From contig CAYFMD010000002.1 of the NCBI GenBank assembly GCA_964344105.1, positions 2,905 through 66,904 of the forward strand: 64,000 nt of DNA. The letters run 5' to 3'. Every line of letters starts with the position of its first letter. The first letter of the stretch is position 1. This DNA is from Candidatus Woesearchaeota archaeon. Its GTDB lineage: Archaea; Nanobdellota; Nanobdellia; Pacearchaeales; GW2011-AR1. Positions 25,821 through 63,776 of the stretch are shown here, piece after piece. Both the position numbers and the translations under genes were made by a program. The notes below the pieces were generated by a model that made no database searches, was not told the origin of the DNA, and worked only from the letters and a program-made list of their open reading frames with translations.

Positions 25821-26873
25821 CTATCTAGAATTCCACCTAACCTTCGCGCCCTTTTCAGACTTAGTAAAGATGCCTTTCAACCATCCAATCCCATAAGCAA
25901 AATGCGTAGAAACACTAACTCCAAAAACAACCATGCTTGTAAAAATATTTTTCTTCAAACTACCTAGGGCCATTAGAATAAAATAAACAGCAAATCCTGC
26001 AAGAATCAAATTACTATAAACTCCATAATAAATTCCCAAAATCCCTAAGATAAAAACTAACAATCCAATTGTGGGGATCATATAATACAGCTTTTCAAAT
26101 GAAAAATTTTCCTTAGACAGCCAAGCAATATCTCTGCTGTAAATATACATCTGCTTGATATGCTTCCATATAGTATCTCTCCTATGATGATTAACTTTAA
26201 CATCTCCTGCATAAAACACTCTAAGGCCCTTCTCCCATACATCAAAACAATACTTTGAATCTTCTGCAGTTAAGAAATTAGAATCATATTCTATTCCCAA
26301 TTTCCTAGAAATAAAATTGCAACTAGGCAATTCCCAAGAGTCTTGGTTCTCAGCCACTTTATATCTTATAGCTGCTTGGCCAGAAACAAAGAAATTACTC
26401 AAAACATATCCAGAAATATGCTCTGCAAAATTAGCTTCTGGAGGGGTTAAATTAGGCCCTCCTACCAACCCGATTTTCTCATCCTCAAAATACTTCATCG
26501 CGTTCTTCAACCAATCTCTTTTTGGATACGCATCGTCATCTATGAAAGCAAAAAATTGTCCTTCTGCAATCTGCATAGCCTTATTTCTCTTCAGTGCAGG
26601 CTTAACCTTGCCAGTCTCAATTATCCTCAACCTATCATCCTTAGACCTCTTATTGCAATGGTCTGGTAAAACAATAACCTCAAAATCTGGATAATCTAAC
26701 TTCAAACATTCTCTTATGCATTTAATACATTGATCGTTAATAGTAATGCAAGGGATAATTATACTCACTTTTTTGCTCAGAGAATTTTGCATAGATGAGA
26801 TTTCCGAAGGAAATTTAGCAAAATTATCTTTTAGGGGGATTGGAAAAACGGAGTTTTTCAAATGTCTCTTCAT
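25821..26873 (-). CDS. family 2 glycosyltransferase with C-terminal TM anchor
   Basis: VSIIIPCITINDQ and FIDDDAYP. C-terminal hydrophobic helices. Confidence 0.65.
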   Translation of the reverse strand: MKRHLKNSVFPIPLKDNFAKFPSEISSMQNSLSKKVSIIIPCITINDQCIKCIRECLKLDYPDFEVIVLPDHCNKRSKDDRLRIIETGKVKPALKRNKAMQIAEGQFFAFIDDDAYPKRDWLKNAMKYFEDEKIGLVGGPNLTPPEANFAEHISGYVLSNFFVSGQAAIRYKVAENQDSWELPSCNFISRKLGIEYDSNFLTAEDSKYCFDVWEKGLRVFYAGDVKVNHHRRDTIWKHIKQMYIYSRDIAWLSKENFSFEKLYYMIPTIGLLVFILGILGIYYGVYSNLILAGFAVYFILMALGSLKKNIFTSMVVFGVSVSTHFAYGIGWLKGIFTKSEKGAKVRWNSR

Positions 26874-26876
26874 AAA

Positions 26877-27818
26877 TTATAGCCTCTTTTTGAAGCTTAA
26901 ATAGATTCCTATGATTGAAGGAATAATTCCAGCTACAACTAATCCTATTATAGACATAGAGAAAACCTTGGCAGCACTAACTCCAAATAATGCAAACAAA
27001 CTAATCAAAGTAGCCTCTCTAGTTCCTAGCCCATTGATGCTAATTGGTATCATAGTAACCAGAGTCCCTATAGGATAAATAGCAAAATAAACCATCAATG
27101 GAACATCTATACCTAAAGAAAGTCCGATATAATATGCAGTAACATAATTCAACATCCAATTAATAAAATTCAAAGCAAAGAAAAGTACAAAATATCTCTT
27201 TCTAGGAACGTGTTCATAAAATGAATTGAAAGTCATCTTTGCCTTTTCTCTTAACCTAGCCGGAATCAATTTTCTATGGAAAAATTTCAAAATAAAATAA
27301 CTCCTTTCTTTCTTTATGAAAAACAAGATTCCCAAAACAAAAAATAAAAATAGGGCACTAAAGAAAGTCACAGGTAGATCTAGGGTATCCTTAAACTGGT
27401 AAGAGAATAACAATGCAATAAATATTATAGCACTAACATCTAATATCTTATCAATAACAAAATTAAACAATCCCTTCCCTATTTTATCATCTGCATATTC
27501 TTTCAAATATTCTGCTCTTATTACTGAACCAACCTTAGAGGGTGTTACAAATCCATAATAATTTTCAACCAAATTAATCTTGAAAGCTTTCTTGAAAGGA
27601 ACTTTCATATCCTGGAATCTTGCTATAGTGAACCATTTCAAAGTTTCAGAAAACAATCTAATAATTATTACTAAAATAGCAATAGAAATAAAATAAATAT
27701 TAACCCTGCTAACTTCTTTAACCACCTCACTAAAATCAATCTTAGCCAATATGTAAACAAACAAAATTATACCAATTATGGGCAAATATTTTTTCCAATT
27801 TCTTATAAAATAATTCAT
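26877..27818 (-). CDS. polytopic membrane protein (flippase-like / UPF0104-like)
   Basis: About 8 TM helices, sitting between a GT2 and the AglH-like gene. Confidence 0.35.
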   Translation of the reverse strand: MNYFIRNWKKYLPIIGIILFVYILAKIDFSEVVKEVSRVNIYFISIAILVIIIRLFSETLKWFTIARFQDMKVPFKKAFKINLVENYYGFVTPSKVGSVIRAEYLKEYADDKIGKGLFNFVIDKILDVSAIIFIALLFSYQFKDTLDLPVTFFSALFLFFVLGILFFIKKERSYFILKFFHRKLIPARLREKAKMTFNSFYEHVPRKRYFVLFFALNFINWMLNYVTAYYIGLSLGIDVPLMVYFAIYPIGTLVTMIPISINGLGTREATLISLFALFGVSAAKVFSMSIIGLVVAGIIPSIIGIYLSFKKRL

Positions 27819-28825
27819 ATTAATGCCCCCTTAAAGATAAAAAAGGCCAATAAACAAATAACAATCTGTATCAGGAAAATAAAATGAACAACATCCTTTT
27901 CATACACCTTCTTTTTATATTTCTTCAATATTAGTAGTGAAAGATGAGTCATTCCATAAACCTTGCTATAAGGTATTTCCAAACTGCCATCCTCATTAAC
28001 TTTAGCAAAAGAAGGCTTCTTCAACCTACCTCTAACTTTCAAAAAAGTCTCAACAATATATGGAATAAAAACAAAAACCGCTATTCTCTCAAAATTACCC
28101 AATATTGCCATAGCGGCTATCAGTGCTCCAATAGAATATGTCAAAACATCTCCTGGGAAAACTTTAGCAGGAACTTTGTTGTACATATAGAAAACGATCA
28201 ATGCCATAACCATGCACAATCCAACTACTGTCAGCCAAGCACTTCCCGTTAGATATGCTATGAGGCTCAAAAAACTAATTATTATAATCCCTTGGCCGCT
28301 TTCCAACCCATTAAATCCTGCTAGAAAATTGTAAGTAGTTGTAGCCCCTGCAATGCCTATTGGAATTAATAATAACGGATAATAGATTCCTAGATCAACA
28401 ACACCCCAAATAGGAATCTCAATAACCTTTGAACCTGCATTAATAACAACCAATGGAATTGAAGCCATAAATGCCAAAAACAACCTAAACTTTATTGACA
28501 ACCCTCTAGATGTCCATCCAAGAACATCATCCACAAAGCCGATCAAACCAACTAATAATATCAAACTCAATAATGCAAATATTTTTGTAACTTCTCCATT
28601 ACCTCCCAAAAAGAATGTCTTCAAAGCAATATAGCTTAAAACTCCTACAACAAAACTTATCACAACAATTATTCCTCCAGAAGCCGCCACAGCCTTCTTC
28701 TTATCAACCTTATTCATATCTTCCCACAACAATCCAACCTCTCTACACTTTTGTATCCATTTAGGCAATGCATAAAAGCACAAGGCAAAACTCAATAACA
28801 TAGATAGTGCCAATAAATTTTCCAT
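27815..28825 (-). CDS. GT4-family (MraY/WecA/AglH-like) dolichyl-phosphate HexNAc-1-phosphate transferase
   Basis: Polytopic protein with NFLAGFNGLESGQG, an MraY-like NxxNxxDGxDGL-type motif. Confidence 0.65.
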   Translation of the reverse strand: MENLLALSMLLSFALCFYALPKWIQKCREVGLLWEDMNKVDKKKAVAASGGIIVVISFVVGVLSYIALKTFFLGGNGEVTKIFALLSLILLVGLIGFVDDVLGWTSRGLSIKFRLFLAFMASIPLVVINAGSKVIEIPIWGVVDLGIYYPLLLIPIGIAGATTTYNFLAGFNGLESGQGIIIISFLSLIAYLTGSAWLTVVGLCMVMALIVFYMYNKVPAKVFPGDVLTYSIGALIAAMAILGNFERIAVFVFIPYIVETFLKVRGRLKKPSFAKVNEDGSLEIPYSKVYGMTHLSLLILKKYKKKVYEKDVVHFIFLIQIVICLLAFFIFKGALI

Positions 28826-28917: not shown

Positions 28918-31668
28918 TCATAACCTCCAACTCAAATACTTTCTATAATCCCTATCAACATATTCTTCCTTGAGTTCTTCATTTCCAGTATATTCAACTT
29001 CCCAGATCTTTATAGGTCCTTGAAGTCCTTGATAATAAACAAACTCTGGAAGATCCATTCCTCTAGCTCTCAAATCATCTAATATCAATGAAGATTGTGT
29101 ATGTGCCAACTTGAAGTTAGGGAAATTACCAAATGCATCATCCAATATGTAAACTTGTGCCAACATTCCTCTCAATAATCTTGGACTGACATACAACATA
29201 GCTCCTTGCTCTTGCAATGATGCCCTCCCATTTTCCACATTCAATCTCGGAATAACATATGCAACAGCTTCTATTCCCGAACCATAATCAAACAACTGAC
29301 CCTTAAAGTAGATGTATCTTAAGTTAACATCATATTGCTGACCTTGGTATGTCATTATTGCCCTAGGTTGCTCAAACACACCTGTTGCAGTATTAACAGG
29401 AGTAACTATTGCCCCAACACCTGCATTCCCTGAAGGTAATAATATCTCTCTACCATCTTTCTCAATAATCAAATCCTCATCTAACCCAATTCCTCCTGGA
29501 TATACAAATAGTGTTTGACTAGAAGTCTCTTGCGTCTGACTATCATCTAAAACAAAAGGTCTCATGAATGAATATCTATCAAAATTCTCATCACTTCCAA
29601 TACTAGAGAATGCAGTATATTTCCCAATATCTGTACTATCAATCAAAAAGTAATCTACATCATGATTATACAATAATTCTAAAGCATCATGTTGGTTATC
29701 TCCAGTCAATACATGCCTTCCAACGAGATAATTCCAATACACAATAGCATTGCCTCCATCTACCATGGTAGCTCTATCGCCTATACTTTGCACCCAATAA
29801 CCATAGTCCCACCAATGAGAAAAGACCGCATCTGTAGGTGTATTTTCCCTAACCCAATTCATAGCCCTCTGCCATTGCAGATTATATGAACTAGGAACAA
29901 AATTGTAAGCCTGATAACTAATGCTTTGATAATAAACATAGAATGTATAAAGGCTAGCAATCAAAATCAAAATCACTGCAAGTCCTACCAAAACCTTATT
30001 CACGCTTTCCTTTGACTTAGTATATCTATCTACTACTTCTACAACCAAGAATCCAACAAATATTGTGGATATTGGCCCAAGAACCATAATCAATCTAACA
30101 GCTCCTCTAACAGTAAATAGTGTAACTATAAACAAAGAAAACAACAAAATATATTCATATCTAATCTTCATGAAAGCATCATCTCCAGCTTTCTGATATC
30201 TAAGATATGTTCTCAATAACAGGTAAACAAACAATAGAACAGAAACATAATAGAACGCCTTACTTATCAAATTATCTCCATTAAACACACTGCTTGCAGA
30301 ATATCTGGAATAAACCATTCCAGCCAATAAGAACATAAAGCTAAATGTCAAAATCCAGGCATCTTTATTCTTCAATCTCATCAACATCTTCTTGAACAAG
30401 ACTACAGAACCAATTACAAACAACCAGAACATCAAAGCAATGTTCTTGAAGTAAGGGCCAAAGCTTCCACTCCATTCCTGGAAGTTAGGCTGCCTATTTT
30501 CAGCAACAGTTATATTCCATCTACCAAAGATTGGCTTGAAAATTGTCTGATGAATGACCTTTATCTTATCTATTATAAATTCAGGCCCCAATGCAACAAC
30601 ACTAAGAATAGCAATCACAATTATAGCAACAATAAAACTCTTGATTGGCCTAGGAATATCATATTTATTCAACAAACTCCAATTTCTAATTTTAGTATTC
30701 CAAACCAATCTATCTACAATCAAAACCAAGAACACAAAGACAGCACTTCCAGAAGACAATGAGGTTAGTGTAGAAAATAATTTATATCTTCCTGAAAAGA
30801 AAACCAGCATAGCGATAGAACTAATCAACCAAACCCCATAGGCATAAAAATGTCTTTTCTTAACCTTACCAAGTATGAAAGATATTAAGGCTGCAACAGC
30901 CATTGGAATAAACACATAAATTACTCCTCCCCAAATCAATCCCATTAATCCTGTAGAAATACCTGCCAATAATCCCCAAATCACTGATTTTTTAACAGTC
31001 AAAGATTTCCAAGCTTTCAAAAATAGATATAATGATAAAAACAAAAAGAAAAAGGCAGCACTTTCTTTCTCCGGAATTCCTGCAATAGTTCTTGATAAAA
31101 ATACAGGGGTAACTATCATAAAAAACGTAGCTATTAAAGACATAATATTGGCCTTCAAAACACCTTTCTTAGTTTTCCTAACAAACAATTCTCTAACAAA
31201 CAAAAAGAAACTAATTATAGTAAATCCAAACATAATTACTGGAAATATAACTCCTGCAAACTCAATAGGGTAATCTCCAAACCAATTAGCTATTTTATGA
31301 GTATATGCAATCATATACGGGAGCAACTGACTTTCAATGGAATTATCAAACCCCACCGGAACATTCCTCATCATATCAATCGCAGGCAAACTCCCCTCAT
31401 TTACTATAGTCTCCGCACTACGCAAGAACAACCAGGGATCTAAATCTGGACCCAATGTCCATGTCTGTGTAGTAATATCATAAAGCCCAGGATTACCCGA
31501 CTGATGCTCAGTCATTGGAAGAGCACGTATGTACATTCCCAAAATAACCGCAACTATCAACAAAACAACAACCCATCCCTGTCCCTTAGTAAGAAACTTA
31601 AATACCTTCTCTTTCCTTTCTTTCAATATATCACTACTACCTCTCAACTCACCAATTTCATCCATCAA
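28918..31668 (-). CDS. aglB: archaeal oligosaccharyltransferase AglB (STT3 homolog)
   Basis: 916 aa, N-terminal 13-TM domain plus a large C-terminal domain carrying SHWWDYGYWVQS (WWDYG motif). Confidence 0.9.
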   Translation of the reverse strand: MMDEIGELRGSSDILKERKEKVFKFLTKGQGWVVVLLIVAVILGMYIRALPMTEHQSGNPGLYDITTQTWTLGPDLDPWLFLRSAETIVNEGSLPAIDMMRNVPVGFDNSIESQLLPYMIAYTHKIANWFGDYPIEFAGVIFPVIMFGFTIISFFLFVRELFVRKTKKGVLKANIMSLIATFFMIVTPVFLSRTIAGIPEKESAAFFFLFLSLYLFLKAWKSLTVKKSVIWGLLAGISTGLMGLIWGGVIYVFIPMAVAALISFILGKVKKRHFYAYGVWLISSIAMLVFFSGRYKLFSTLTSLSSGSAVFVFLVLIVDRLVWNTKIRNWSLLNKYDIPRPIKSFIVAIIVIAILSVVALGPEFIIDKIKVIHQTIFKPIFGRWNITVAENRQPNFQEWSGSFGPYFKNIALMFWLFVIGSVVLFKKMLMRLKNKDAWILTFSFMFLLAGMVYSRYSASSVFNGDNLISKAFYYVSVLLFVYLLLRTYLRYQKAGDDAFMKIRYEYILLFSLFIVTLFTVRGAVRLIMVLGPISTIFVGFLVVEVVDRYTKSKESVNKVLVGLAVILILIASLYTFYVYYQSISYQAYNFVPSSYNLQWQRAMNWVRENTPTDAVFSHWWDYGYWVQSIGDRATMVDGGNAIVYWNYLVGRHVLTGDNQHDALELLYNHDVDYFLIDSTDIGKYTAFSSIGSDENFDRYSFMRPFVLDDSQTQETSSQTLFVYPGGIGLDEDLIIEKDGREILLPSGNAGVGAIVTPVNTATGVFEQPRAIMTYQGQQYDVNLRYIYFKGQLFDYGSGIEAVAYVIPRLNVENGRASLQEQGAMLYVSPRLLRGMLAQVYILDDAFGNFPNFKLAHTQSSLILDDLRARGMDLPEFVYYQGLQGPIKIWEVEYTGNEELKEEYVDRDYRKYLSWRL

Positions 31669-31741: not shown

Positions 31742-33262
31742 ATGAAAAAGAGGTCGAAGAAGAAATCTTCAAATAATTTATTTTCAAATAGAAATCTGAT
31801 TATAGCATTAGTAATCTTAGTAATAATAATTTTAATCCCAAAGGGAGGCATAACTGGAAACGTAACCAATGATGCAGAATCTGATGGAGGATTTATTGAC
31901 ACTTTAATAGATTTTTTTACAGGAGGCGAATCTTTTGATGATTTATTCTCAGCATTTTTAGTAGATGAAGAAGATGAGGAATTCCATCTATGCTGTGATA
32001 ATAGAGACGAGTGTACAAGACCAGAGTTAGACAATGCGATAAAAACTTGCTTAAGAAATCAAGAGGGTGGACAAAAATACCATGAGGATTGCGGGGATAG
32101 CGGGATTTGTTTAATAGATTGTTTAGAAGACAGCCATTGTGGAAATGGGGAATTTTGCTGTAATAAAGATGCATTCGGAGAAAATGGCTGTACAGGATTC
32201 CAAGCAGGAAGATGTTTTGCAGATCCAGATGCACCTACAGATGAGGGCAATAATGATGAATCAGAAAATACTGATGATGGAAAAAGATGTTGTGTAGCCG
32301 TTTATACTGAAAGACAGGACTTCCCTTGCGATATTATAACTGACGAACAAACTTGTCTAAACGCAGAAGCTGGAAATGTTGCTTCAGATACTTGTGGATG
32401 GGATGAAAACACATTTACATGCTTTAACAATGAAGCTAAACTATGTGAAAATTCAATGCCTCAAGATTGTGACCAAATAATATGGCACCCTACAGATGGA
32501 AGTCTTTCGGGAGTAAGCCCTACTGACAGCGTGGACATATCTGAACTAGATATTCCAGATGACTGTGGATCTGATATTCACATAGAATATTGTGGACATG
32601 GGGTAACTGATGCTTGTGAAGAATACATTGAATTGGGATTTAATATAGCAGCAATGACTGAGGGCACATGTAATGCAGTTACGCTAGATTCAACAGCTTG
32701 CTACCTATTCTCTGATATTGATGCAGCAATACAAGCAGCAAAACAAGAATGCTTAGCAACAGGAACAAATTGTGAAATTTCAATAACTGCAAACCAATGT
32801 CAAGGGTTCATATGGCCTGATAAATGTACTGAGGTTGAAGGGACTAGTACCGAGGTAACTCTTTGTATAAAAGACGGAGAAGTAACTGTTGACTACAATC
32901 CTTGTCATGCAGTTGGTATAAGTTGCTACAACCCAAGTAGTAGTTGGCAATGCGAGATAACTGATGATAATGGAGATATTAAACTAGTCGAGCAATTCTG
33001 TTGTGGCCAGTTCCAAGGATTTGGAAATTGGCACTATCCAGGCCTGCCCTGCCCGGGCTATGAAGAAAACTCTTGCTTGGAAGATCAACTTTGCACAGAA
33101 ATACAGGAACAAAGTGGAGACACAAGAACCTGTAATGTTCAAGAGAATGGCCAAATAGTTGAGAAGGACCAAATCTGCTGCAAGGAACAAAGGGCTCCTT
33201 CCCCTGGAGAGCCTCTAGAATATGATTATGTCTGGAGGAATCTCGGTGAGTGCTTTGGATAG
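31742..33262 (+). CDS. cysteine-rich secreted/surface-anchored protein, family member 1
   Basis: Leader MKKRSKKK..SNRNLIIALVILVIIILIPKGGITGNVTN, then an acidic domain with about 1 Cys per 8-9 residues. TATA-like TTTATATA about 28 nt upstream. Confidence 0.6.
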   Translation: MKKRSKKKSSNNLFSNRNLIIALVILVIIILIPKGGITGNVTNDAESDGGFIDTLIDFFTGGESFDDLFSAFLVDEEDEEFHLCCDNRDECTRPELDNAIKTCLRNQEGGQKYHEDCGDSGICLIDCLEDSHCGNGEFCCNKDAFGENGCTGFQAGRCFADPDAPTDEGNNDESENTDDGKRCCVAVYTERQDFPCDIITDEQTCLNAEAGNVASDTCGWDENTFTCFNNEAKLCENSMPQDCDQIIWHPTDGSLSGVSPTDSVDISELDIPDDCGSDIHIEYCGHGVTDACEEYIELGFNIAAMTEGTCNAVTLDSTACYLFSDIDAAIQAAKQECLATGTNCEISITANQCQGFIWPDKCTEVEGTSTEVTLCIKDGEVTVDYNPCHAVGISCYNPSSSWQCEITDDNGDIKLVEQFCCGQFQGFGNWHYPGLPCPGYEENSCLEDQLCTEIQEQSGDTRTCNVQENGQIVEKDQICCKEQRAPSPGEPLEYDYVWRNLGECFG

Positions 33263-33299: not shown

Positions 33300-34694
33300 A
33301 TGGTGAAGAAAAAAACTTCTAAAAATAATGTATTATCAAACAAAAACTTACTTATAGCATTGGGATTAGTAATCCTAGCTATAATTCTTTACAACATATC
33401 TGGAATAGAAAATGAATCTGGATTGGGGCAAGCATCTCCTGGATTCAATACTTTTTTCTCAGCTTTCGTAGGTGCGCCTGATGCGGGAGATATGGAAACT
33501 CCTGGGAAGGATGATAGCGTTTCTTGTTCAGGAGGGAGATATTGCCCAAGAGGAACCAAGTGTGTAAAGTCAACAAATAAATGTGTTAAATATTGTGATC
33601 CTGCGCAATTTTATTGTAGCCCTTCAGTAGACGATCCTAATAAAGACGGAATTTGTGACAAGCAAGAAAGAGTTTGTGTTTCTTGTTTTATTAATGAAGA
33701 TGGAGAGAGCATAGGGTGTGATGCAAATCCAAACGGGGAAGTTTGCATAGGCACTCCTGGAAAGCGTGAATGTGTGCAATGTAGTTCAGATGATCATTGC
33801 CCTGTGAGAAATGGAAACCAAGATCATGATTTCTGTGTAGATAATAAATGTGTTGAATGCACCAAAAGAGAGCATTGTGGAGATAAAGAAGTCTGTACAG
33901 AAAACAAGTGTGTCCCAATAACAAGCTGCAGAGGTGATGATGGATTTGGAGATATTGATTTATGTAAGGAGCCTTATGACGTTTGTTATGTTTCAGGTTA
34001 TTCTGGAGGAAGCGACGGTGATCCAAACGATCCAAACGATCCAAACCCTATTTGTGTAGCCTGCGCAAATAATCCTAATGTCCCTCCCAATGGGGTGATT
34101 GTGGGATGCGACGATCCTAGAAAGCCTGCATGTGATTTTGGCCCCGCACTACGCAGATGTGTTGAGTGTACGGGAGATAGTCACTGTCCGAATGATAAAC
34201 CTAAGTGTATGGATTATGAGTGTGTTGAAAGATGTGTAGAAAATAGTGATTGTCCAGAAGGATATTGGTGTGCGAATAATCCTAGAGAGTGTGTTGTACC
34301 TAATTATGAATGTGACCTCGCTAATGGTGATCTTGATTGCCCAAGAGGTTACACTTGCCTCGATCCGGATATTACTGGAGCTAGAGATCCTTATTGTGTG
34401 CCTCTACCAAAAGAGAACGGAGATTTCATAGACTGTAATCCAAATGACCCTGATGCCTGTCCTGCAAATACCAAATGTGGGCCAGTTGGAAATATTGGTA
34501 ATAAATGTAAGCCAAAGGAGTGCACGAATTCTATAGAATGTTCAGACCAATATATTTGTAAGAAGTTTCTTCAAGGAGGCACTCTTAGTGAAAGGGGAAC
34601 TTGCTTACCTCCAGTACCTGCAACAGGAGAATGCACTGGACATAGGGACTGTCCTTTTGGAGCTCAATGTATAAACGACAAATGTGCTGTTTAA
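33300..34694 (+). CDS. cysteine-rich secreted protein with CVECxxDxHCP repeats, family member 2
   Basis: Leader MVKKKTSKNNVLSNKNLLIALGLVILAIIL, about 52 Cys, repeated KCV(E/Q)C(T/S)xxxHCP modules, DPNDPNDPN encoded by a 9-bp tandem repeat. Confidence 0.6.
   Translation: MVKKKTSKNNVLSNKNLLIALGLVILAIILYNISGIENESGLGQASPGFNTFFSAFVGAPDAGDMETPGKDDSVSCSGGRYCPRGTKCVKSTNKCVKYCDPAQFYCSPSVDDPNKDGICDKQERVCVSCFINEDGESIGCDANPNGEVCIGTPGKRECVQCSSDDHCPVRNGNQDHDFCVDNKCVECTKREHCGDKEVCTENKCVPITSCRGDDGFGDIDLCKEPYDVCYVSGYSGGSDGDPNDPNDPNPICVACANNPNVPPNGVIVGCDDPRKPACDFGPALRRCVECTGDSHCPNDKPKCMDYECVERCVENSDCPEGYWCANNPRECVVPNYECDLANGDLDCPRGYTCLDPDITGARDPYCVPLPKENGDFIDCNPNDPDACPANTKCGPVGNIGNKCKPKECTNSIECSDQYICKKFLQGGTLSERGTCLPPVPATGECTGHRDCPFGAQCINDKCAV
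34019..34045 (+). repeat. 9-bp tandem repeat x3 (gatccaaac) encoding DPNDPNDPN
   Basis: Direct reading: gatccaaacgatccaaacgatccaaac. Confidence 0.8.
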
Positions 34695-35701: not shown

Positions 35702-36713
35702 TTTCTTTACCTCCTTTAGTTCTCCTCTTTTGAATAATCGCTAACCTATTTCTTAACACAGGAAGCTCCTGATCTATCTTATGCAATCGGTCTTTATATT
35801 TCTTTACCCTAATGTTATATACAAGTCCTGAGATAGCATTTTTCTTATACCTGTCTATTTGCGTCTTCTTTATCAAACTAATCAACACATTCCTCTCTTG
35901 CTTCATCTTAGCTATCTTTTTCTTCAATATCTTAATACTAACTTTCTTACTTCCATAATATGTGCCTCCTATAATTAGAACAATCAAAACTAGAAGTAGT
36001 ATCCAATATCTCTGAACGAAATTCTTAGCCCCATCTCTAACTCCTGAAATAAAACTACTTCCCTCTCTATCTGATTCTATAGAATCTCTCAACCTATCTA
36101 ATAATTCCTGGGTATCCTGATATCTTTCCTCTCTAAACGCTATATCAACTTCTTCTACAAGATTAACCGTCAACTCACTCGGTTCTTTTAATGACTCAAA
36201 ATCCTCATTTCTCACCTTAATCATATCTTCTAATAACAATGACTTAGTTTCTCTTTCCTTTATCTGATCAGTTAGTTCAATAACCCCCTCATAATATATC
36301 TCTTCCCAATTTACCAATCTAAGTGCCGCTCTGGCTCTAGCCTTTTCCTCCAAATTAGGGCTATTGCTTCTTAGGATGTCTGCAAATTTAGCTCTCTCAA
36401 ATACCCGTCTAGCCTCCAATAAAAGATCTTCAACAAACAACGTATTAAACCCATGCTCTTTCATTATAGATATAGATCTATTAGCCTCCTCTATAGCTTC
36501 TAAGGCCATTTCTTCTGTAACTATAACCTTTTCATCACTATCATTAATTATTGCAAAACCAGTAAACAATCCTCTTCTCTCAATCCCCAAGCTTTCGTCT
36601 ATCAAATCATTCATCTCCGAGTTAGCAATATTAAAAGCTGTATAACTAACAAAACTAACAACTATGAAAATTCCTAAAACCCACAAAAACTTATCACTAA
36701 ATCTCATCTGCAT
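35694..36713 (-). CDS. bitopic membrane protein: extracellular helical domain, TM, basic cytoplasmic coiled coil
   Basis: N-terminal signal anchor, second TM (YWILLLVLIVLIIGG), K/R-rich C-terminal tail. Confidence 0.45.
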   Translation of the reverse strand: MQMRFSDKFLWVLGIFIVVSFVSYTAFNIANSEMNDLIDESLGIERRGLFTGFAIINDSDEKVIVTEEMALEAIEEANRSISIMKEHGFNTLFVEDLLLEARRVFERAKFADILRSNSPNLEEKARARAALRLVNWEEIYYEGVIELTDQIKERETKSLLLEDMIKVRNEDFESLKEPSELTVNLVEEVDIAFREERYQDTQELLDRLRDSIESDREGSSFISGVRDGAKNFVQRYWILLLVLIVLIIGGTYYGSKKVSIKILKKKIAKMKQERNVLISLIKKTQIDRYKKNAISGLVYNIRVKKYKDRLHKIDQELPVLRNRLAIIQKRRTKGGKESV

Positions 36714-39183
36714 CCTCCTTATATTTTAACTCAATCCACTTTCCTTTATAGTCTTGATCCTTCGATTGTTCTTTCAATCTTTCTATTATCTCGTTATCTA
36801 TCATCATAACCCCTCTTTCATCTTTCTTCATTTTCTTAGCAAGCTTAGTAGCTTTATCCTTGCTCTTAGCAAACAAACTCTTAGCGCTATTGCCTAATTT
36901 ATTAAGCTTAGAACCTGCTCTTTCAGACAAAGATGGCTTAGAATCTGGTAATTGATCTCCAAGAGCTTCTTTATTCTTTTTGACAATTTTCTTCTTTTCT
37001 AGTCTTTTTTCAACCCACTTCTTCTCGGGAATATCTTCTATTACCTTTCCTCTATTCTTATTCTTCGACAAACTTAATGTAATCCTGTCATCCTCTATCT
37101 CTGCAAATCTCTCATTCATCTCTTTGAATTCAGCATCATATTCTTTCTGAGAGATATTATGTTTAACAAAATAATCTGTCTGAAGAGTTTTGACTTGATG
37201 TTCTAATTGCTTCTTCTCAATTTCAAGATCATTAATTATTTCAGCCGGAGCCAGTAATTTTATTCTTTTGTTTCTCAATTCAACTCTAGCCTTTCTTAAC
37301 TTAGCTAACTTATCTCTATGGTTATCCATAGCACTCTCAAATTCCTCTGAACTCATCTTCCCGCTATAATATTTAGCCTGAGTTTTTCTAAATAGCCCCC
37401 TAATATTAGCCTCTTCCTTAATACCATCCTCTATCTTCCTACTTATGCTAGTCTTTTGGTATTGCTTAACGCCCATAATACTCAAGAATGTAAATATTAT
37501 TACACCTATCACAACAAAATACCAGTAAAGATAAAGGAACAAACCAACATTCCCTCTTCTCTCTAACAACAACATAACTTGGGCTGATTTAGCCCTTTCT
37601 TCCGCAAGATCATAATCTCCTCTTTCAAAAGCTACCTGGGCCAGATCAACAACTTCTTCTATAGAACTGTCAGCAAATATAGCTTTTCCAGAAATTAAAG
37701 CTCTAACAGGAACCATCTTTCCATCTTCATCTCTAACTTCCTTGGCCACATTCCCTGTAATAAGATTGGTCTTCTTAGGATCTTCCAAAGCCAGTTTAAG
37801 ATTATCAATCAGTTCTTTTACTTCAAATGCTTTATCTTTAATTTTAATTATCCTTTTTGCAATATCTAAAGCAAATTTATTATCTTCCCCAAGGTTTTCA
37901 TTAATCTCTTTAATTAACTCCTCTACAATTTCTACATTGAATAAAGCCTCCTTCATTTCTTCCAGAGCCCTCTTCGCCTTATCAACAAAATCAGTTATTT
38001 CCTCATCACCAACCTCTTCAATAATCAGCTTAATATTTTGAGTTTCTTTATAGGATGTCTCAATTCCCTTAGTAAGTTTGATTCCAGTCACATCTGCTCT
38101 CAAGGTATGCACTTCACGCTCTTCCTTATAGGCAGGAATTTTTATCTTAACATTAAAATATTTTTTATCTTTTGAATCTATTGAATCAATAGTCTTAGGA
38201 TTTATTTCAATATACTGAGCAAAAAAACCACTAATTTCTAATTTTAGATCTTTTAGAATCGTATCTGTAAATTTATTTTCGACTTCAATTTCAAAACTAT
38301 CCTCTTGGCCCCTAACTATTCTAATCTCTTTTGAATAAATTGTAGCTGAGCCTCCCCCACTACTACCTCCGCCTCCTCCGCCACCACTTTCACTACCTCC
38401 TGATTCGACTACTGTGGCTGCAGGACCTGATCCTACATCAACCTCATTTACAGTAACATTCTTGCTGCCGACTTCTATTAGATTTGAGGTTAGGTTTGAA
38501 TCAGTATTGTTTAATCCAGTAACATTAGCATATAGGGTTACCGTTCCCGGAGTAGCCGTAGAATTAATATCTACAGTTAATGTAAAATTATTTTGTTCGT
38601 TTACACTTAATGTGCCAACTGACCTACTTAGTGTTCCTGTAGTGTTAATCCATCCATTAGGCAAGCTAAAATTCATTTCAACATTCTTTGCATTGCCTTG
38701 TCCCTTATTAGTAACCGAGACTATTAATTGAATTCCTGTATTATTTTGTGAAACAATGCTAGGTGCAGTTTCAAAACTTGTGATCAAAAATGGGTTTGCC
38801 GACGTTGCAACAATGTTAGCAGTAAATGTGGCAGAAGCAGGAACACTGGCAACATTGGCATCTGTGTCATTAACAGAGATATTAAATGTTATTAATGTAG
38901 AGCCTTCAGTACTAGGAGTTGTCACATTAACCTGCAAAGTTCTACTATCATTGCCATCAATGTTAGTGTTATTCAAATAAAAAGGAAAAGATGTATTGAA
39001 TGCTATATCTCCTTCAAAATCACTAGTTATATTCAATACGGTTATATTTTTGCTAGTGTGGGTATCATTTATTGTAAGGTTCCCAATAGTTTTATTTACA
39101 TTTAATGCTGTTGCAATATTACCAAAAGATTTCTGCAGATAGTTCCAAACAGTACCAATCAGAAAACTTCTTGTAGAACTCAT
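36697..39183 (-). CDS. large surface protein: sequon-dense extracellular beta-rich domain, Gly-rich linker, TM helix, cytoplasmic K/E coiled coil
   Basis: About 20 N-x-S/T sequons in the first 250 aa. CARDB-like SVTNKGQGNAKNVEMNFSLPNGW, then SGGSESGGGGGGGSSGGGS, TM GLFLYLYWYFVVIGVIIF and a coiled-coil tail. Confidence 0.55.
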   Translation of the reverse strand: MSSTRSFLIGTVWNYLQKSFGNIATALNVNKTIGNLTINDTHTSKNITVLNITSDFEGDIAFNTSFPFYLNNTNIDGNDSRTLQVNVTTPSTEGSTLITFNISVNDTDANVASVPASATFTANIVATSANPFLITSFETAPSIVSQNNTGIQLIVSVTNKGQGNAKNVEMNFSLPNGWINTTGTLSRSVGTLSVNEQNNFTLTVDINSTATPGTVTLYANVTGLNNTDSNLTSNLIEVGSKNVTVNEVDVGSGPAATVVESGGSESGGGGGGGSSGGGSATIYSKEIRIVRGQEDSFEIEVENKFTDTILKDLKLEISGFFAQYIEINPKTIDSIDSKDKKYFNVKIKIPAYKEEREVHTLRADVTGIKLTKGIETSYKETQNIKLIIEEVGDEEITDFVDKAKRALEEMKEALFNVEIVEELIKEINENLGEDNKFALDIAKRIIKIKDKAFEVKELIDNLKLALEDPKKTNLITGNVAKEVRDEDGKMVPVRALISGKAIFADSSIEEVVDLAQVAFERGDYDLAEERAKSAQVMLLLERRGNVGLFLYLYWYFVVIGVIIFTFLSIMGVKQYQKTSISRKIEDGIKEEANIRGLFRKTQAKYYSGKMSSEEFESAMDNHRDKLAKLRKARVELRNKRIKLLAPAEIINDLEIEKKQLEHQVKTLQTDYFVKHNISQKEYDAEFKEMNERFAEIEDDRITLSLSKNKNRGKVIEDIPEKKWVEKRLEKKKIVKKNKEALGDQLPDSKPSLSERAGSKLNKLGNSAKSLFAKSKDKATKLAKKMKKDERGVMMIDNEIIERLKEQSKDQDYKGKWIELKYKEDADEI

Positions 39184-58041: not shown

Positions 58042-58093
58042 TTTATAAACCTTACCTTTAAATAAATAAAATTCCTAAAATAAAAAAGAGAAA

Positions 58094-58519
58094 ATGTTAA
58101 TGCCGCCTATCTTCATACTTTTGCACGTCTTTATTATAGCATTGATTCTAAACCTTGTTTGGGAATTTACTCACGCCATCCTCTATAAAACCTGTCTAAA
58201 AATGAACATTAGAGATGAAGCAAAACTTCTTTACAAAATGTCAACAAAGGATGCAATATTAGTTACAGTATTTTATGTTCTAAGCGGAGTTATATTCAAT
58301 AATATCAATCCATTCATCCATCTCCCACAATTATTCACTTTCATCGGATTTACGATAGTCTTCGCATACTTCGATGAGAGAATCTCAATTAAAAAAGGAA
58401 GGTGGAAATATGCTAAAGACATGCCTCTTCTTCTAAAGGTAGGAATAACACCCTTAGTTGAACTAGCAATAACTGGAACAATCACTTTAGCAATCATATT
58501 TTCATACGTTTCAATATAA
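58094..58519 (+). CDS. membrane protein (4 TM)
   Basis: Hydrophobic 141-aa ORF. Confidence 0.35.
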   Translation: MLMPPIFILLHVFIIALILNLVWEFTHAILYKTCLKMNIRDEAKLLYKMSTKDAILVTVFYVLSGVIFNNINPFIHLPQLFTFIGFTIVFAYFDERISIKKGRWKYAKDMPLLLKVGITPLVELAITGTITLAIIFSYVSI

Positions 58520-58743
58520 TGGAAATCTTCAAAATAATCGGAATCATTGGACTTCTCTTAATAATTTCAGGGGTTCTAATAAAAAAGAAAAACAGAAAAC
58601 TTCGAGATAAAATCTACATTCTCGGAGGCCTTTGTCTAGCCGCCTACAGCTATCATATTATGGATTATATTTTCATAACACTTCAATTAGTTTTCATAAT
58701 AGTAGCAATCTATGATCTGATTAGAATTAATCACAATCCTTAA
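58519..58743 (+). CDS. small membrane protein (2 TM)
   Basis: 74-aa hydrophobic ORF coupled to the previous one. Confidence 0.3.
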   Translation: MEIFKIIGIIGLLLIISGVLIKKKNRKLRDKIYILGGLCLAAYSYHIMDYIFITLQLVFIIVAIYDLIRINHNP

Positions 58744-58773
58744 AATTTTATATTTTTAGGAGATGGAAAATTA

Positions 58774-59892
58774 TCAAAAATTTTCCATATTAATGAACCG
58801 ATGACCTTCTTCAGAAATATTATAATTGATTAACTTAAACTTTCCTTCTAGTTCCGCTCTAACTCTTAACAATATTTCTGGATCTGCAGAATATACCATA
58901 ACTGATCCTCCACCTCCTCCCAGCGGAAAACAAACTGCTCCATGTTTCTTACAAACCTCGTCAATCTGATTAGCCCCCGGACTCATATAATATTCACACA
59001 ATTTTTTTCTAATCGTAACATAATCTTCAACAGGCTTCTCAATAGCCTTCCAATCTTTATTTCTTATAGCCTCTCTATATGCATAAGCTAAATCCATTAA
59101 TTTTCTCTGCAACTTAAATCCTTCAACATTTCTCAATCCTTCTCTCCAAACAGCATTAACATCTGCACTAAATCTTTCTTGACAAAAATATACATCCAAC
59201 CTTTTTCTTAATTCAGGATAATCCTCTTTATTCAAGATAGTTTGTCTAATCGAACTACCATAAAAATTTCCTTCTCCAGGAATTCCATATGGGAACCAAA
59301 TGTAATCTCTCACTCCTCCATAAACCGCACAGCTTTGCTCTTGAGTACCTGTCAAACTAACTCCAAAATCCTCTTCAATCATTGAGGCCATCCCAACTAT
59401 CTGGTCATTATTGTATTTATTTCCAGTTAGCTTATTAGCAAACAACGCAACAGCAGTACTAACTGCAGCACTTCCTCCCATTCCAGCACTCTTAAACTTC
59501 GGATCATGATTTCTTATGGTAAACTTAACGCCATCTAATCCAAAAATGTTCATTAAGACCAAAAGATAATTTTCTTTGTTGTGAGTCACTTCATCCTTTT
59601 TAGCCAATCTAACATAATCATAATCCCAAGACTCTACACATAACATTCCTTTTTCTATTGGACTAGCAACAATATCTGTTCCAACATCAATAGAGATGCC
59701 TACTGTTCTGGGCATCTCTTCAGACCACTTCATCCTTTCATCATTTCTCTCAACATCATTATGCCTGTAATAAATATGCTGCCATGCTCTCATATCTAAA
59801 GTACTTCCCGGACCATCAATTCTCAAGAAAACTGTTATTCCTGGAAGCCTATCTTCCTCTTTGGCTTTCACCAATTTTTCATGTAAGTCCAT
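58774..59892 (-). CDS. GHMP-family kinase
   Basis: KFKSAGMGGSAAVSTAVAL (GHMP motif 2) and C-terminal CFPLGGGGGSVMVY. Confidence 0.6.
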   Translation of the reverse strand: MDLHEKLVKAKEEDRLPGITVFLRIDGPGSTLDMRAWQHIYYRHNDVERNDERMKWSEEMPRTVGISIDVGTDIVASPIEKGMLCVESWDYDYVRLAKKDEVTHNKENYLLVLMNIFGLDGVKFTIRNHDPKFKSAGMGGSAAVSTAVALFANKLTGNKYNNDQIVGMASMIEEDFGVSLTGTQEQSCAVYGGVRDYIWFPYGIPGEGNFYGSSIRQTILNKEDYPELRKRLDVYFCQERFSADVNAVWREGLRNVEGFKLQRKLMDLAYAYREAIRNKDWKAIEKPVEDYVTIRKKLCEYYMSPGANQIDEVCKKHGAVCFPLGGGGGSVMVYSADPEILLRVRAELEGKFKLINYNISEEGHRFINMENF

Positions 59893-59969
59893 GCTAAATT
59901 TACCTAAAATTCATATTTAAGGATTTATGTTTACTAAACATTATTAAATGACATTTAGCTATTACTAGC

Positions 59970-61088: not shown

Positions 61089-61823
61089 TCAAGCGCATTT
61101 ATAATCTTCATTACTAAAGTCCCAAGTACAAATCTCATCATCTCTGCACATTTCCTTAACTATTTCATAGGTAGTAGTATCTACACAATCTCCTGCACCG
61201 CAACTGGAAACTGTCCGAACCTCCAAAACTTGAGAGACATCTTCCGAACACTCTGTTGTTACAACTGTTGGACGGCAAAGAACACTATGTCCTTGTTTAA
61301 TACGACATTCTCCTCCAAAACAATGCATGCAGTTAGGATAAATGCTTGGATTACTTGGATCATACTCAGAATCGCAATCTGCATGAGATGAACAAGCTAT
61401 TCCAGTCGAACCAGGGTTCTTCTCAATTGGATCTTCCGGAATCTCCTCTTCAGCACCTTCAGGCCCTTCTTCAACACATATCCCTTCTAAACAAGTACCC
61501 TCATAACCGAAATTATCGTCAGTACATGATTCACCATTATTAACATACTCATCTTTCTCTTCATCACAACACTCATCATCATCAAATGACTTACAAAAAA
61601 TAATTCCCAACTCCTCTTCCTTATCATCTCCTACAAAAAGCTCCCCAAACAATCCTCCCAAGGGTCCTGGGCCAATCGTTCCCAACCCATCTTCGCTCTC
61701 ACCATCTCCACTAAAATTCATAACTAACAAAAAAGCAACTAAAAGAACAACTACTCCAATAACTAAATTCCTATTAAAACCATTATTAGAATTTTTCTTA
61801 TCAACACTCTTTTTCTTAGCCAT
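61089..61823 (-). CDS. cysteine-rich secreted protein, family member 3 (short)
   Basis: Leader MAKKKSVDKKNSNNGFNRNLVIGVVVLLVAFLLV, then an acidic Cys-rich domain. Confidence 0.55.
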   Translation of the reverse strand: MAKKKSVDKKNSNNGFNRNLVIGVVVLLVAFLLVMNFSGDGESEDGLGTIGPGPLGGLFGELFVGDDKEEELGIIFCKSFDDDECCDEEKDEYVNNGESCTDDNFGYEGTCLEGICVEEGPEGAEEEIPEDPIEKNPGSTGIACSSHADCDSEYDPSNPSIYPNCMHCFGGECRIKQGHSVLCRPTVVTTECSEDVSQVLEVRTVSSCGAGDCVDTTTYEIVKEMCRDDEICTWDFSNEDYKCA

Positions 61824-61859
61824 CTTTTCAAAATCTAAAACCCTTTTTATTATTTAAAT

Positions 61860-62723
61860 CTATGGGCGAGGCCCACAATGATTCTCAGAATAGTCCTCAT
61901 CATCCACTACGCACTTTGGATTCTCAAAATCACAACCTATATCAACCAGTTCTGCTCTTAATTCGGGATCAAACCCTCTATCAATAGCTTTTCTTTGATC
62001 ATAAGGTACACAAGAAACACAAACTGGGATTTTTTGAGGATCTGTCTCACCAACCTTTGGATATTCCCAAGGATCTTTTTTATAACAAAATGGTTTATCT
62101 ATTGTACAACCTTTATTTGGGCCTTGAACACTAACTAATGTACCATCTGGAAGTTCTATAGGGGGATTCAAAGGAATGTTTGGTGCAAAATTAAAGTCAC
62201 CTTTTTTACTATTTACTCCATTGTGCAGCTCAGTCTTATAATATCTTTCACCTAGGCTGCAAGTCTGACAATCACCAGGGCAATTAAACATATTTTCTCC
62301 ATAGTTCCTAGTATCGCACCTACCATCATTATTACAGGGGCCTTCAAAGTCATCTCTATCTTCATCATCCTCAGAACAAACGCCATCTAAACATATTCCT
62401 TGACCTCCATCTTCTAATAAGCAAAATGTATAATCTGGAACATTATCTCCTCTCAGCTTGCAACCATCTTCTTCTTCATCCGCCTCTGCAGGAGCATCAT
62501 CAAATAACCAGCCCATAATAGATCTAAGAAAACCAAAGCTCTCTGAAGCCTCTTCAAAAGAAGGCGTGTCTCTTTCATCAGGATCTTCCACACTATCTGC
62601 AAAAGTAGCATTACCAGTTATCCCTCCAGAACTAAAAATAAAGATCCATAGTAAAACTACTACTATCCCCAAGATTAAATTCTTATTAATTTCTTTTTTC
62701 TGACTATTTTTCTTCTTAGCCAT
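61860..62723 (-). CDS. cysteine-rich secreted protein, family member 4
   Basis: Leader MAKKKNSQKKEINKNLILGIVVVLLWIFIFSSGGITGNATFADS. C-terminal module FAPNIPLNPPIELPDGTL..GPNKGCTIDKPFCYKK shared with the next gene. Confidence 0.6.
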   Translation of the reverse strand: MAKKKNSQKKEINKNLILGIVVVLLWIFIFSSGGITGNATFADSVEDPDERDTPSFEEASESFGFLRSIMGWLFDDAPAEADEEEDGCKLRGDNVPDYTFCLLEDGGQGICLDGVCSEDDEDRDDFEGPCNNDGRCDTRNYGENMFNCPGDCQTCSLGERYYKTELHNGVNSKKGDFNFAPNIPLNPPIELPDGTLVSVQGPNKGCTIDKPFCYKKDPWEYPKVGETDPQKIPVCVSCVPYDQRKAIDRGFDPELRAELVDIGCDFENPKCVVDDEDYSENHCGPRP

Positions 62724-62732
62724 TTTTCAAAT

Positions 62733-63692
62733 CTACCTATAAGGCCCACAATAATTTTCTGTAGGATCTTCCTCGCCCTTACAATAGTGTTCTCCTGCTT
62801 TACCTGAGCACCCTATACCCACCTCTGCCTTTGCCCAATTTTTTGGATAATTTCCTTTCCCAATTTTCTCATTTGATGGAACACAAGCAACACAAGTCTG
62901 ACTAGTCTGACCGATCTTACTACTGCCTAGGGGGAGTGGTCCAGTAAATTTCTTATAGCAAAATGGTTTATCTATAGTACAACCTTTATTGGGTCCTACG
63001 ACTGTAATCAAAGAACCATCAGGAAGTTCTATAGGAGGATTCAATGGAATATTTGGCGCAAAAATATTTTCAGGAGTTGTTTTTGAATTCACCTCATAGT
63101 AATTGCCAATCACACAATGCTTACAATCGCTAGGACAATTCTCCATACTTTCTCCGTAAGTCTGGGTATCGCATATACCATCATTATTACATTGCCCACA
63201 ATCATCCGGACAATTCTCCCTAGTTTCAAAATTATCTCTCCACTCACACACTCCATTATTATTACACGGCACTTCATCACCATATTCATTTTCATAATCT
63301 TCATCGCATATGCAACTTTCTCCATAATTGGGATGCTCTTCTGTTCTCCCGGGGTCTTCTTTGCATCTCCATTGCCTAGCACCAACCTCTTTGCATATAG
63401 TATTCAATGAAAGGGGATCTCCATTTTCTCCAAAACATTCCTCACTACATCCCCCTGGAATTTCACTAACTTCATTTTCTGCAGGAGCATCATCAAATAA
63501 CCATCCAACAGCTGCTCTAACCACTCCTTCTAAAAACCCTTCTTCTTCTAACTCTCCAATACTATCTGCAAAAGTTACATTCCCAGTTATCCCTCCTCTA
63601 AAAACAAAAAACAATATAACCAAAACTAATACTACTAACCCTGCAGCTAACCAATTCCTATTCACACCTTTTTTCTTTTTTGCCACAATCAA
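62733..63692 (-). CDS. cysteine-rich secreted protein, family member 5
   Basis: Leader (TTG start) IVAKKKKGVNRNWLAAGLVVLVLVILFFVFRGGITGNVTFADS. 22 Cys. Shares FAPNIPLNPPIELPDGSL..GPNKGCTIDKPFCYKK with member 4. Confidence 0.6.
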   Translation of the reverse strand: MIVAKKKKGVNRNWLAAGLVVLVLVILFFVFRGGITGNVTFADSIGELEEEGFLEGVVRAAVGWLFDDAPAENEVSEIPGGCSEECFGENGDPLSLNTICKEVGARQWRCKEDPGRTEEHPNYGESCICDEDYENEYGDEVPCNNNGVCEWRDNFETRENCPDDCGQCNNDGICDTQTYGESMENCPSDCKHCVIGNYYEVNSKTTPENIFAPNIPLNPPIELPDGSLITVVGPNKGCTIDKPFCYKKFTGPLPLGSSKIGQTSQTCVACVPSNEKIGKGNYPKNWAKAEVGIGCSGKAGEHYCKGEEDPTENYCGPYR

Positions 63693-63776
63693 ACAATAAA
63701 CTAAAACTAATATTTAAATCCATCTATAACTTAAATTTATAAACATCATATCACTATTCTAAAAAGAGGTGAACAA

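Follow-up and report, generated by a model that had tools for sequence, protein, structure and literature searches.

The locus and its genes

The stretch of DNA analyzed here, called the window below, is 64,000 nucleotides (nt) long and covers positions 2,905 to 66,904 of contig CAYFMD010000002.1 (assembly GCA_964344105.1) from a Candidatus Woesearchaeota archaeon of the order Pacearchaeales. Three consecutive minus-strand open reading frames (ORFs) fill positions 61089-63692 and encode cysteine-rich proteins of 319/317, 287 and 244 amino acids (aa). They are called m5, m4 and m3 in order of transcription, matching members 5, 4 and 3 of a first-pass annotation, which had described a tandem triplet of cysteine-rich paralogs in exactly this interval. 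The pair m4 and m5 is an old tandem duplication, since diverged, in which one 38-aa module has stayed nearly identical; m3 carries the same leader on a different body. The principal features of the three genes are as follows.

62733..63686, minus strand: m5, 317 aa from a GTG start; ectodomain with 22 Cys
63573..63686, minus strand: m5 leader, aa 1-38, composed of MAKKKKGVNRN, a transmembrane (TM) helix and GGITGNVT; sequon at N36
63115..63266, minus strand: CNNDG-type repeats of m5, two tandem copies with a 75-nt period; repeat family D1
62949..63062, minus strand: 38-aa module, m5 copy, aa 209-246; repeat family D2
61860..62723, minus strand: m4, 287 aa; architecture like that of m5 but with one CNNDG-type repeat; 16 Cys
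62604..62723, minus strand: m4 leader, aa 1-40, composed of MAKKKNSQKKEINKN, a TM helix and GGITGNAT; sequon at N38
62260..62336, minus strand: CNNDGxCD..GE..NCPxDC repeat of m4, a single copy of about 25 aa; repeat family D1
62076..62189, minus strand: 38-aa module, m4 copy, aa 179-216, FAPNIPLNPPIELPDGTLVSVQGPNKGCTIDKPFCYKK; repeat family D2
61089..61823, minus strand: m3, 244 aa; B-type leader (..FNRNLVIG..MNFSG..EDGLGT..GLFGELFVG); 18 Cys
61710..61823, minus strand: m3 leader, aa 1-38, composed of MAKKKSVDKKNSNNGFNRN, a TM helix and NFS; sequon at N36

In m5 the Lys-rich tail and single TM helix are followed by GGITGNVT, an acidic linker, the motif GWLFDDAPAE and a first Cys subdomain, and then by the two CNNDG-type repeats, the 38-aa module and a Cys tail. 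The likeliest start of m5 is the GTG at 63686, which yields the N-terminus MAKKKK as in its neighbours; the mechanical alternative, a TTG at 63692, gives 319 aa, and database gene calls have either 310 or 317 aa.

m4 and m5: an old duplication with a strongly constrained module

The two proteins align end to end (39% identity, E 7e-55 by BLASTP). Every one of the 16 cysteines of m4 has a counterpart in m5, 15 of them exactly aligned and one offset by a few columns, and the six additional cysteines of m5, again an even set, come from its extra 25-aa repeat and from two further positions. Conservation is concentrated in islands, namely GGITGN[AV]TFADS, GWLFDDAPAE, the CNNDGxCD..GE..NCPxDC repeat and, above all, the 38-aa module, which follows the pattern FAPNIPLNPPIELPDG[TS]L[VI][ST]V[QV]GPNKGCTIDKPFCYKK and contains a C-x6-C loop. 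The module is identical at 34 of 38 aa and at 95 of 114 nt. The first-pass annotation had singled out this near-identity, allowing that it might come down to low-complexity composition; the module is not low-complexity, and the likeness around it runs the full length of the gene.

That annotation took the near-identity of the module as a mark of recent duplication and diversification. Duplication and diversification are borne out, but the duplication is old, since synonymous divergence is near saturation and no repeat at the locus exceeds 83-84% DNA identity. Estimated by the method of Nei and Gojobori, the synonymous divergence (dS) of m4 and m5 is about 1.2 over the whole gene. Within the module dS is 0.92 and non-synonymous divergence (dN) is 0.065, for a dN/dS of about 0.07; the rest of the pair has dS of about 1.26, dN of 0.51 and dN/dS of about 0.4. 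The module thus differs by 13.5 synonymous and 5.5 non-synonymous changes, and its ratio of the two departs from that of the remaining gene (Fisher p 1.6e-4). In 30-codon windows, the proportion of non-synonymous differences (pN) drops to 0.08 over the module while the synonymous proportion (pS), at 0.52-0.54, stays like that of the flanks. Purifying selection on the protein, then, is what has kept the module nearly identical, and a recent duplication does not account for it; nor does gene conversion, which is rejected because pS in the module (0.53) resembles the flanks. No window has pN above pS, and dN/dS is below 1 throughout the alignment, which supports the coding status of both genes. 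An antisense gene beneath the module was also considered and rejected, the antisense ORFs being short and accounted for by composition; Rfam has no match in the window, so a functional RNA beneath the module is likewise unsupported.

Separately, pS between m4 and m5 climbs steadily from 5' to 3', from about 0.4 in the region of the leader and GWLFDDAPAE to about 0.8 in the C-terminal tail. This gradient may stem from constraints on codons or mRNA, or the 5' end may have undergone partial gene conversion long ago.

Other assemblies show no variation at the locus. The m4 gene is carried on seven contigs (from ENA, Logan and NCBI), and in the three independent assemblies that were retrieved the locus has the same three genes and is 100% identical in DNA to the window; no strain or copy-number variation was seen among these three. 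The locus has no invertible repeats, recombinase genes or silent cassettes, its only inverted repeat being a 33-nt match at 73%.

A leader shared by unrelated bodies

The first-pass annotation gave all three members one leader and m3 a different body, and both observations are upheld. When m3 is compared with a profile of m4 and m5 (hhalign), only the leader matches (probability 84%, E 7.7e-6, 31 columns). Beyond the leader, BLASTP finds a marginal match between m3 and m4 in the first Cys subdomain (35% over 51 aa, E 0.014) and none between m3 and m5. The same leader occurs on two plus-strand genes elsewhere in the window, called m1 and m2, which stand next to a gene for the oligosaccharyltransferase AglB/STT3:

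28918-31668, minus strand: AglB/STT3, 73 bp from m1 and divergently transcribed
31742..33262, plus strand: m1, 506 aa; A-type leader (GGITGNVT); 42 Cys
33300..34694, plus strand: m2, 464 aa; B-type leader (NIS..ENESGLG..FFSAFVGAPDAG); 52 Cys

The profile of m4 and m5 matches m1 with a probability of 95% (E 3.9e-8, hhalign), and m3 can be aligned to m2 over about 65 aa. Two leader types can be told apart, type A (m1, m4 and m5; ...GGITGN[VA]T...) and type B (m2 and m3; ...N[FI]SG..E.E.GLG..PG..F..FVG...). At both loci type A precedes type B in the direction of transcription (m1-m2 and m5-m4-m3), which suggests that an ancestral A-B pair was duplicated as a block and that the A gene was later duplicated in tandem.

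The leader is evidently present beyond the source genome, where the bodies attached to it are unrelated or very short. A 93-aa protein on another DPANN contig (P0012, L038:4883-5164) matches a profile built from the five leaders with E 1.3e-5, and a metagenome scan adds an orthologue of this protein that has no cysteines (L042:2658-2939). The two share synteny, with a 170-aa membrane protein upstream of each, and both retain a sequon next to the membrane (VNFTG in P0012, MNFTG in the L042 protein). The same profile gives weaker matches to five more proteins (P0013-P0017, on L040, L043 and L045). P0013 and P0014 each have an overlapping ORF downstream, on short contigs of which one has about 1x coverage, and may be frameshifted. 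As examples of one leader with many bodies, P0013-P0017 were set aside because of the short contigs and the frameshifts suspected in P0013 and P0014.

Topology, cysteines and sequons

All five proteins are built to one plan. The N-terminal region has 5-7 Lys or Arg and 0-1 Asp or Glu; a single hydrophobic segment follows (mean Kyte-Doolittle value 2.5-2.9), with no second TM-like segment; and the ectodomain is acidic, with an isoelectric point of 4.0-4.4. Other export and sorting signals were looked for in m1-m5. There is no twin-arginine motif (RR), no lipobox (no Cys occurs before residue 76) and no C-terminal anchor or sorting signal, the C-termini reading, for example, ..HCGPRP, ..YCGPYR and ..DYKCA. 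A prepilin peptidase site consists of a short charged N-terminus with [KR]-[GAS] directly before the hydrophobic segment; all five proteins have N-[RK]-N-[LW] there, with Asn at -1, and so lack a class III signal peptide of the type IV pilin kind. The cysteine counts of m1, m2, m3, m4 and m5 are 42, 52, 18, 16 and 22, all of them even.

The N-x-S/T sequons of m1-m5 have a striking distribution. All lie within residues 32-40, just past the hydrophobic segment, and the sequon Asn is an invariant column of the five-way alignment. The 1593 residues past position 45 contain no sequon, although their composition predicts 9.5 (none of 5000 shuffles reaches so low a count); in the remaining 62 ORFs of the window, 82 sequons compare with an expected 79.3 (observed/expected 1.03). 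All five proteins have a sequon predicted to lie outside the membrane, and the genome has an AglB/STT3 gene, as would be required of putative AglB-dependent N-glycoproteins.

Two other observations from the window bear on glycosylation. Directly downstream of AglB, on the same strand (25821-28825, minus), lie genes of the GT2, LPG_synthase_TM-like and GT4 kinds, and together with AglB they look like an N-glycosylation (agl) gene cluster. A protein of 828 aa (36697-39183, minus strand) has 21 N-x-S/T sequons against 8.6 expected, mostly in its N-terminal 250 residues or so; this part contains an NPCBM_assoc/NEW3 domain, and after it come a Gly/Ser linker, a C-terminal TM segment and a long tail of charged residues. 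The protein probably belongs to the envelope and carries many N-glycans, the reverse of what is seen in the sequon-free cysteine-rich family.

Putative promoters

TATA-like boxes, read as promoters on the basis of the archaeal promoter consensus, are found 21-27 nt upstream of m1, m5 and m3. Those of the trio are:

63711..63718, minus strand: TTTAAATA, ending 24 nt before the GTG of m5; repeat family D15
61851..61858, minus strand: TTTAAATA, ending 27 nt before the ATG of m3

The contexts of these two boxes are 88% identical to each other. The start of m4 lies 9 nt past the stop codon of m5, so m4 and m5 are probably co-transcribed, and 36 nt separate m4 from m3. The putative promoters suggest an m5-m4 transcript and a separate promoter for m3, with 5' untranslated regions that are short or absent.

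Searches for relatives and genomic setting

The family is an orphan. When 5.8 billion proteins were searched by a word index, the only matches to m4 were m4 and m5, and the only match to m3 was m3 itself. GTDB genome contigs hold no relatives of m3, m4 or m5, and a module-only alignment has no matches in JGI metagenome contigs and IMG/VR. None of m3, m4 and m5 matches a Pfam-A or NCBIfam family at E<=1, PHROGs gives no matches (leaving a viral or defence origin unsupported), and the best E-value in the PDB is 0.22. A literature search on cysteine-rich surface proteins of DPANN archaea or Pacearchaeota found nothing relevant. A full HMMER scan of 1.84 billion representative proteins with the m4/m5 profile returned five further matches, all at the level of repeats, which are taken up under the comparison with known systems.

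The window has archaeal ribosomal-protein clusters, an aSUI1-like gene and a GC content of about 35%. Relatives of its ribosomal protein L3 occur only in metagenome-assembled genomes (MAGs) of Pacearchaeota and Woesearchaeota (DPANN), the closest, at 83% identity, being on CAYVEM010000008.1 (locus L004). In 24 related MAG loci an AI-2E transporter gene and a gene for a 246-aa protein adjoin L3, and directly past the transporter most of these loci have a gene of about 490 aa (MKLKIKKL...), often followed by a Na+/H+ exchanger gene. The ~490-aa gene is absent from the window, and the m5-m4-m3 trio stands in its place; collinearity with L004 stops exactly at the end of the AI-2E gene. Across 34 related Pacearchaeota/Woesearchaeota L3 loci (538 kb) there is no relative of m1-m5, no cysteine-rich protein with the leader and no leader of the GGITGN type. 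The trio constitutes a lineage-specific insertion at a variable position. The window also has, relative to L004, about 1.9 kb of further extra sequence (58074-59945) with a GHMP kinase gene and two small membrane-protein genes.

Two side observations concern the window and the compared loci. ARAGORN finds no tRNA gene in positions 1-64000, and no Rfam family reaches its gathering threshold, despite several ribosomal-protein operons. One compared locus, L027 (JAHYJW010000002.1), is labelled "Patescibacteria group bacterium" and has an archaeal-type L3 and an AI-2E and 246-aa protein neighbourhood like those of the Pacearchaeota loci; the record has probably been mislabelled or assigned to the wrong bin.

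Interpretation

With moderate confidence, we read m1-m5 as lineage-specific, disulfide-rich surface glycoproteins that are anchored at the N-terminus or secreted through Sec and most likely act in adhesion, with the 38-aa module of m4 and m5 as a probable contact site; m5, m4 and m3 are taken to be real, expressed genes. By the positive-inside rule the Lys-rich end faces the cytoplasm and the acidic, cysteine-rich part lies outside; we infer insertion by Sec with the N-terminus inside, after which each protein would either be retained by its single hydrophobic helix or be cleaved from it. The sequon pattern argues that the oligosaccharyltransferase can reach the proteins but is allowed a single site, close to the membrane, and each protein would probably carry one N-glycan at the conserved sequon where the chain leaves the membrane. 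Beyond this an acidic linker would lead to a compact ectodomain stabilized by disulfides, the even and conserved cysteines pointing to disulfide-bonded modules. The ectodomain of m4 and m5 would be mostly fast-diverging around its near-constant module, and such constancy most likely marks a functional contact site for a partner, a ligand or a processing factor. In m3 the family leader sits on an unrelated cysteine-rich body, and the five-member family as a whole would combine a common export or anchoring leader with interchangeable cysteine-rich cargo. By analogy with its host-attached relatives, the organism most likely uses these proteins at its surface for adhesion or interaction.

Several points weigh against this reading. 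The adhesion or host-interaction role is drawn from analogy with other DPANN archaea only, no binding domain being recognized. An AlphaFold2 (AF2) model of m4, built on the two-sequence alignment, has a mean predicted local distance difference test score (pLDDT) of 39.7 and is confident for helix 14-32 only; a model of the C-terminal 118 aa has a pLDDT of 41.5, and both are unusable for the fold. The residues at -3 and -1 are ambiguous between a cleaved signal peptide and a permanent anchor. Disulfides are assumed although the habitat may be anoxic, and, with a probability of about 0.03 that five even cysteine counts arise by chance, the counts are no more than suggestive. Because the five proteins are related, the statistics on their sequons are not fully independent.

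The ambiguity over cleavage is where an alternative enters, in which leader, TM segment and acidic linker form a prepro-region whose removal releases soluble cysteine-rich effectors, toxins or antimicrobials. A conserved leader on unrelated bodies, an acidic stretch of about 45 residues between the TM helix and the first Cys, possible signal-peptidase sites read from the sequence (SSG|G, ITG|N and TFA|DS) and the very different small bodies of the leader's relatives would all suit secreted pro-proteins. Yet hydrophobic segments of 16-19 residues, which is long, and a conserved Lys-rich tail suit an anchor more than a signal peptide that is removed. A conserved sequon beside the membrane would have no use on a propeptide that is thrown away, or else cleavage at ITG|N would destroy it. 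Nor does any protease, immunity or export gene adjoin the trio, and there are no PHROGs, toxin or Pfam matches; we think this alternative unlikely, if still worth keeping in mind. The cysteines could instead serve as ligands of metals or Fe-S clusters, or carry electrons at the surface, as CxxC pairs (C152/C155 and C235/C238 in m4; C163/C166, C188/C191 and C265/C268 in m5; C165/C168 in m3) and a possibly anoxic habitat would allow. These pairs are not in a paired-knuckle arrangement, however, and the proteins match no metal-binding, ferredoxin, zinc-ribbon or cytochrome family. The CPxDC-x2-C cysteines belong to a repeat that serves as an extracellular spacer in unrelated bacterial proteins, and even counts with an extracellular topology favour disulfides, so that a metal-binding or redox function appears distinctly improbable.

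The first-pass annotation itself proposed a surface or antigenic family, which in full would be one that has recently expanded and diversifies quickly, or varies in phase. The surface location remains plausible, and the tandem arrangement, a fairly high dN/dS (about 0.4) outside the conserved islands and the position of the trio at a break in otherwise conserved synteny fit such a family. The antigenic part is largely refuted. With dS near 1 and DNA identity of at most 84% nothing at the locus is recent, the public data that were searched hold no more than two copies that can be aligned, no window has dN/dS above 1, three assemblies show zero nucleotide variation, and no machinery for switching was seen. 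We regard this account as very improbable. Returning to anchored surface glycoproteins, a bolder version would make the N-terminal unit (Lys-rich tail, N-[RK]-N, TM helix, juxtamembrane N-x-[ST] and acidic linker) an undescribed DPANN export or anchoring signal, with a membrane-proximal N-glycan that is functionally required (for example in AglB-coupled display or envelope tethering), cargo selected to be sequon-free, and the 38-aa module as the recognition site for a host or partner. We hold this version to be rather improbable.

DPANN archaea rely on cell contact, and almost none of their surface proteins has been characterized; the locus adds to these a small, well-delimited orphan family. 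Being confined to one lineage, the family establishes no new mechanism by itself, and its wider importance is modest. Only two features deserve follow-up. One is the 38-aa module, under roughly six-fold stronger constraint than the remaining protein. The other is the sequon pattern, in which one sequon at the membrane and none in some 1,600 ectodomain residues suggests selection on where AglB acts. Together with these two, the leader common to unrelated bodies makes three testable features.

Comparison with known systems

The only part of m4 and m5 with relatives elsewhere is the CNNDG-type repeat, which at the DNA level is present in three copies of 77 nt. Four of the five HMMER matches (P0007, P0008, P0009 and P0011; E 5.9e-15 to 9e-6) are confined to it, at profile positions 149-206. 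These proteins have an unnamed repeat, CxxDGxC-x(5-8)-E-x(3,4)-CPxDC, with the same cysteine spacing as m4 and m5 (CNNDGRCDTRNYGENMFNCPGDC and so on), in 3-12 tandem copies after a bacterial signal or lipoprotein leader and joined to unrelated C-terminal domains; m4 and m5 have one and two copies. No Pfam or NCBIfam model describes this repeat of about 25 aa (CxxDGxC...CPxDC). Judged by its four cysteines and its DG, E and CPxDC positions, m4 and m5 belong to it and m3 does not.

The fifth match, P0010, is an SprB-repeat protein. The end of its internal repeats resembles the 38-aa module (FAPNIPLNPPIELPDGTLVSVQGPNKGCTIDKPF versus FVSELPLAEPIELGAGTYVWVVMDENECHVDLNF, 38% over 42 aa), with a pairwise E of 2e-4 in this single comparison, while the rest of the immunoglobulin (Ig)-like domain is unrecognizable, and the SprB repeat model PF13573 matches neither m4 nor m5. 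As an unconfirmed lead, the module may be a beta-hairpin of an Ig-like unit with a conserved Cys. More generic cysteine repeats (TIGR04201 Myxo_Cys_RPT, PF23416 DUF7107, PF01683 EB module and PF04706 Dickkopf_N) share a C..D.C....C...C pattern with m2 and, weakly, with m1, at scores below the curated cut-offs (15-19 bits versus 24-27). These models do not match m3, m4 or m5; one unit of m3 resembles a generic repeat by eye (CSSHADCD...CMHCFGGEC).

Two well-known families offer parallels of organization. The variant-specific surface proteins of Giardia are encoded by about 200 genes, are anchored by a C-terminal TM helix with a conserved CRGKA tail, and are subject to antigenic switching. Like them, m1-m5 would be cysteine-rich, CxxC-containing, membrane-anchored surface proteins in a gene family, but the anchor of m1-m5 is N-terminal, the genes number five and no variation was seen; of the marks of antigenic or contingency families, namely many recent paralogues, strain variation, positive selection and a switching mechanism, none was seen at this locus. 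Conotoxin superfamilies combine a conserved prepro-region or leader with a hypervariable cysteine-rich body. They differ from m1-m5, whose leader includes a Lys-rich tail and a TM-like helix that is long, whose bodies measure 200-470 aa where conotoxins are short peptides, and whose processing is hypothetical. The resemblance, which is one of analogy and not homology, lies in homologous leaders, bodies that cannot be aligned and even cysteine counts in m1-m5. Orphan though it is, the family is thus of a familiar kind, that of lineage-specific cysteine-rich surface proteins with a shared leader, and is not a recently duplicated antigen family.

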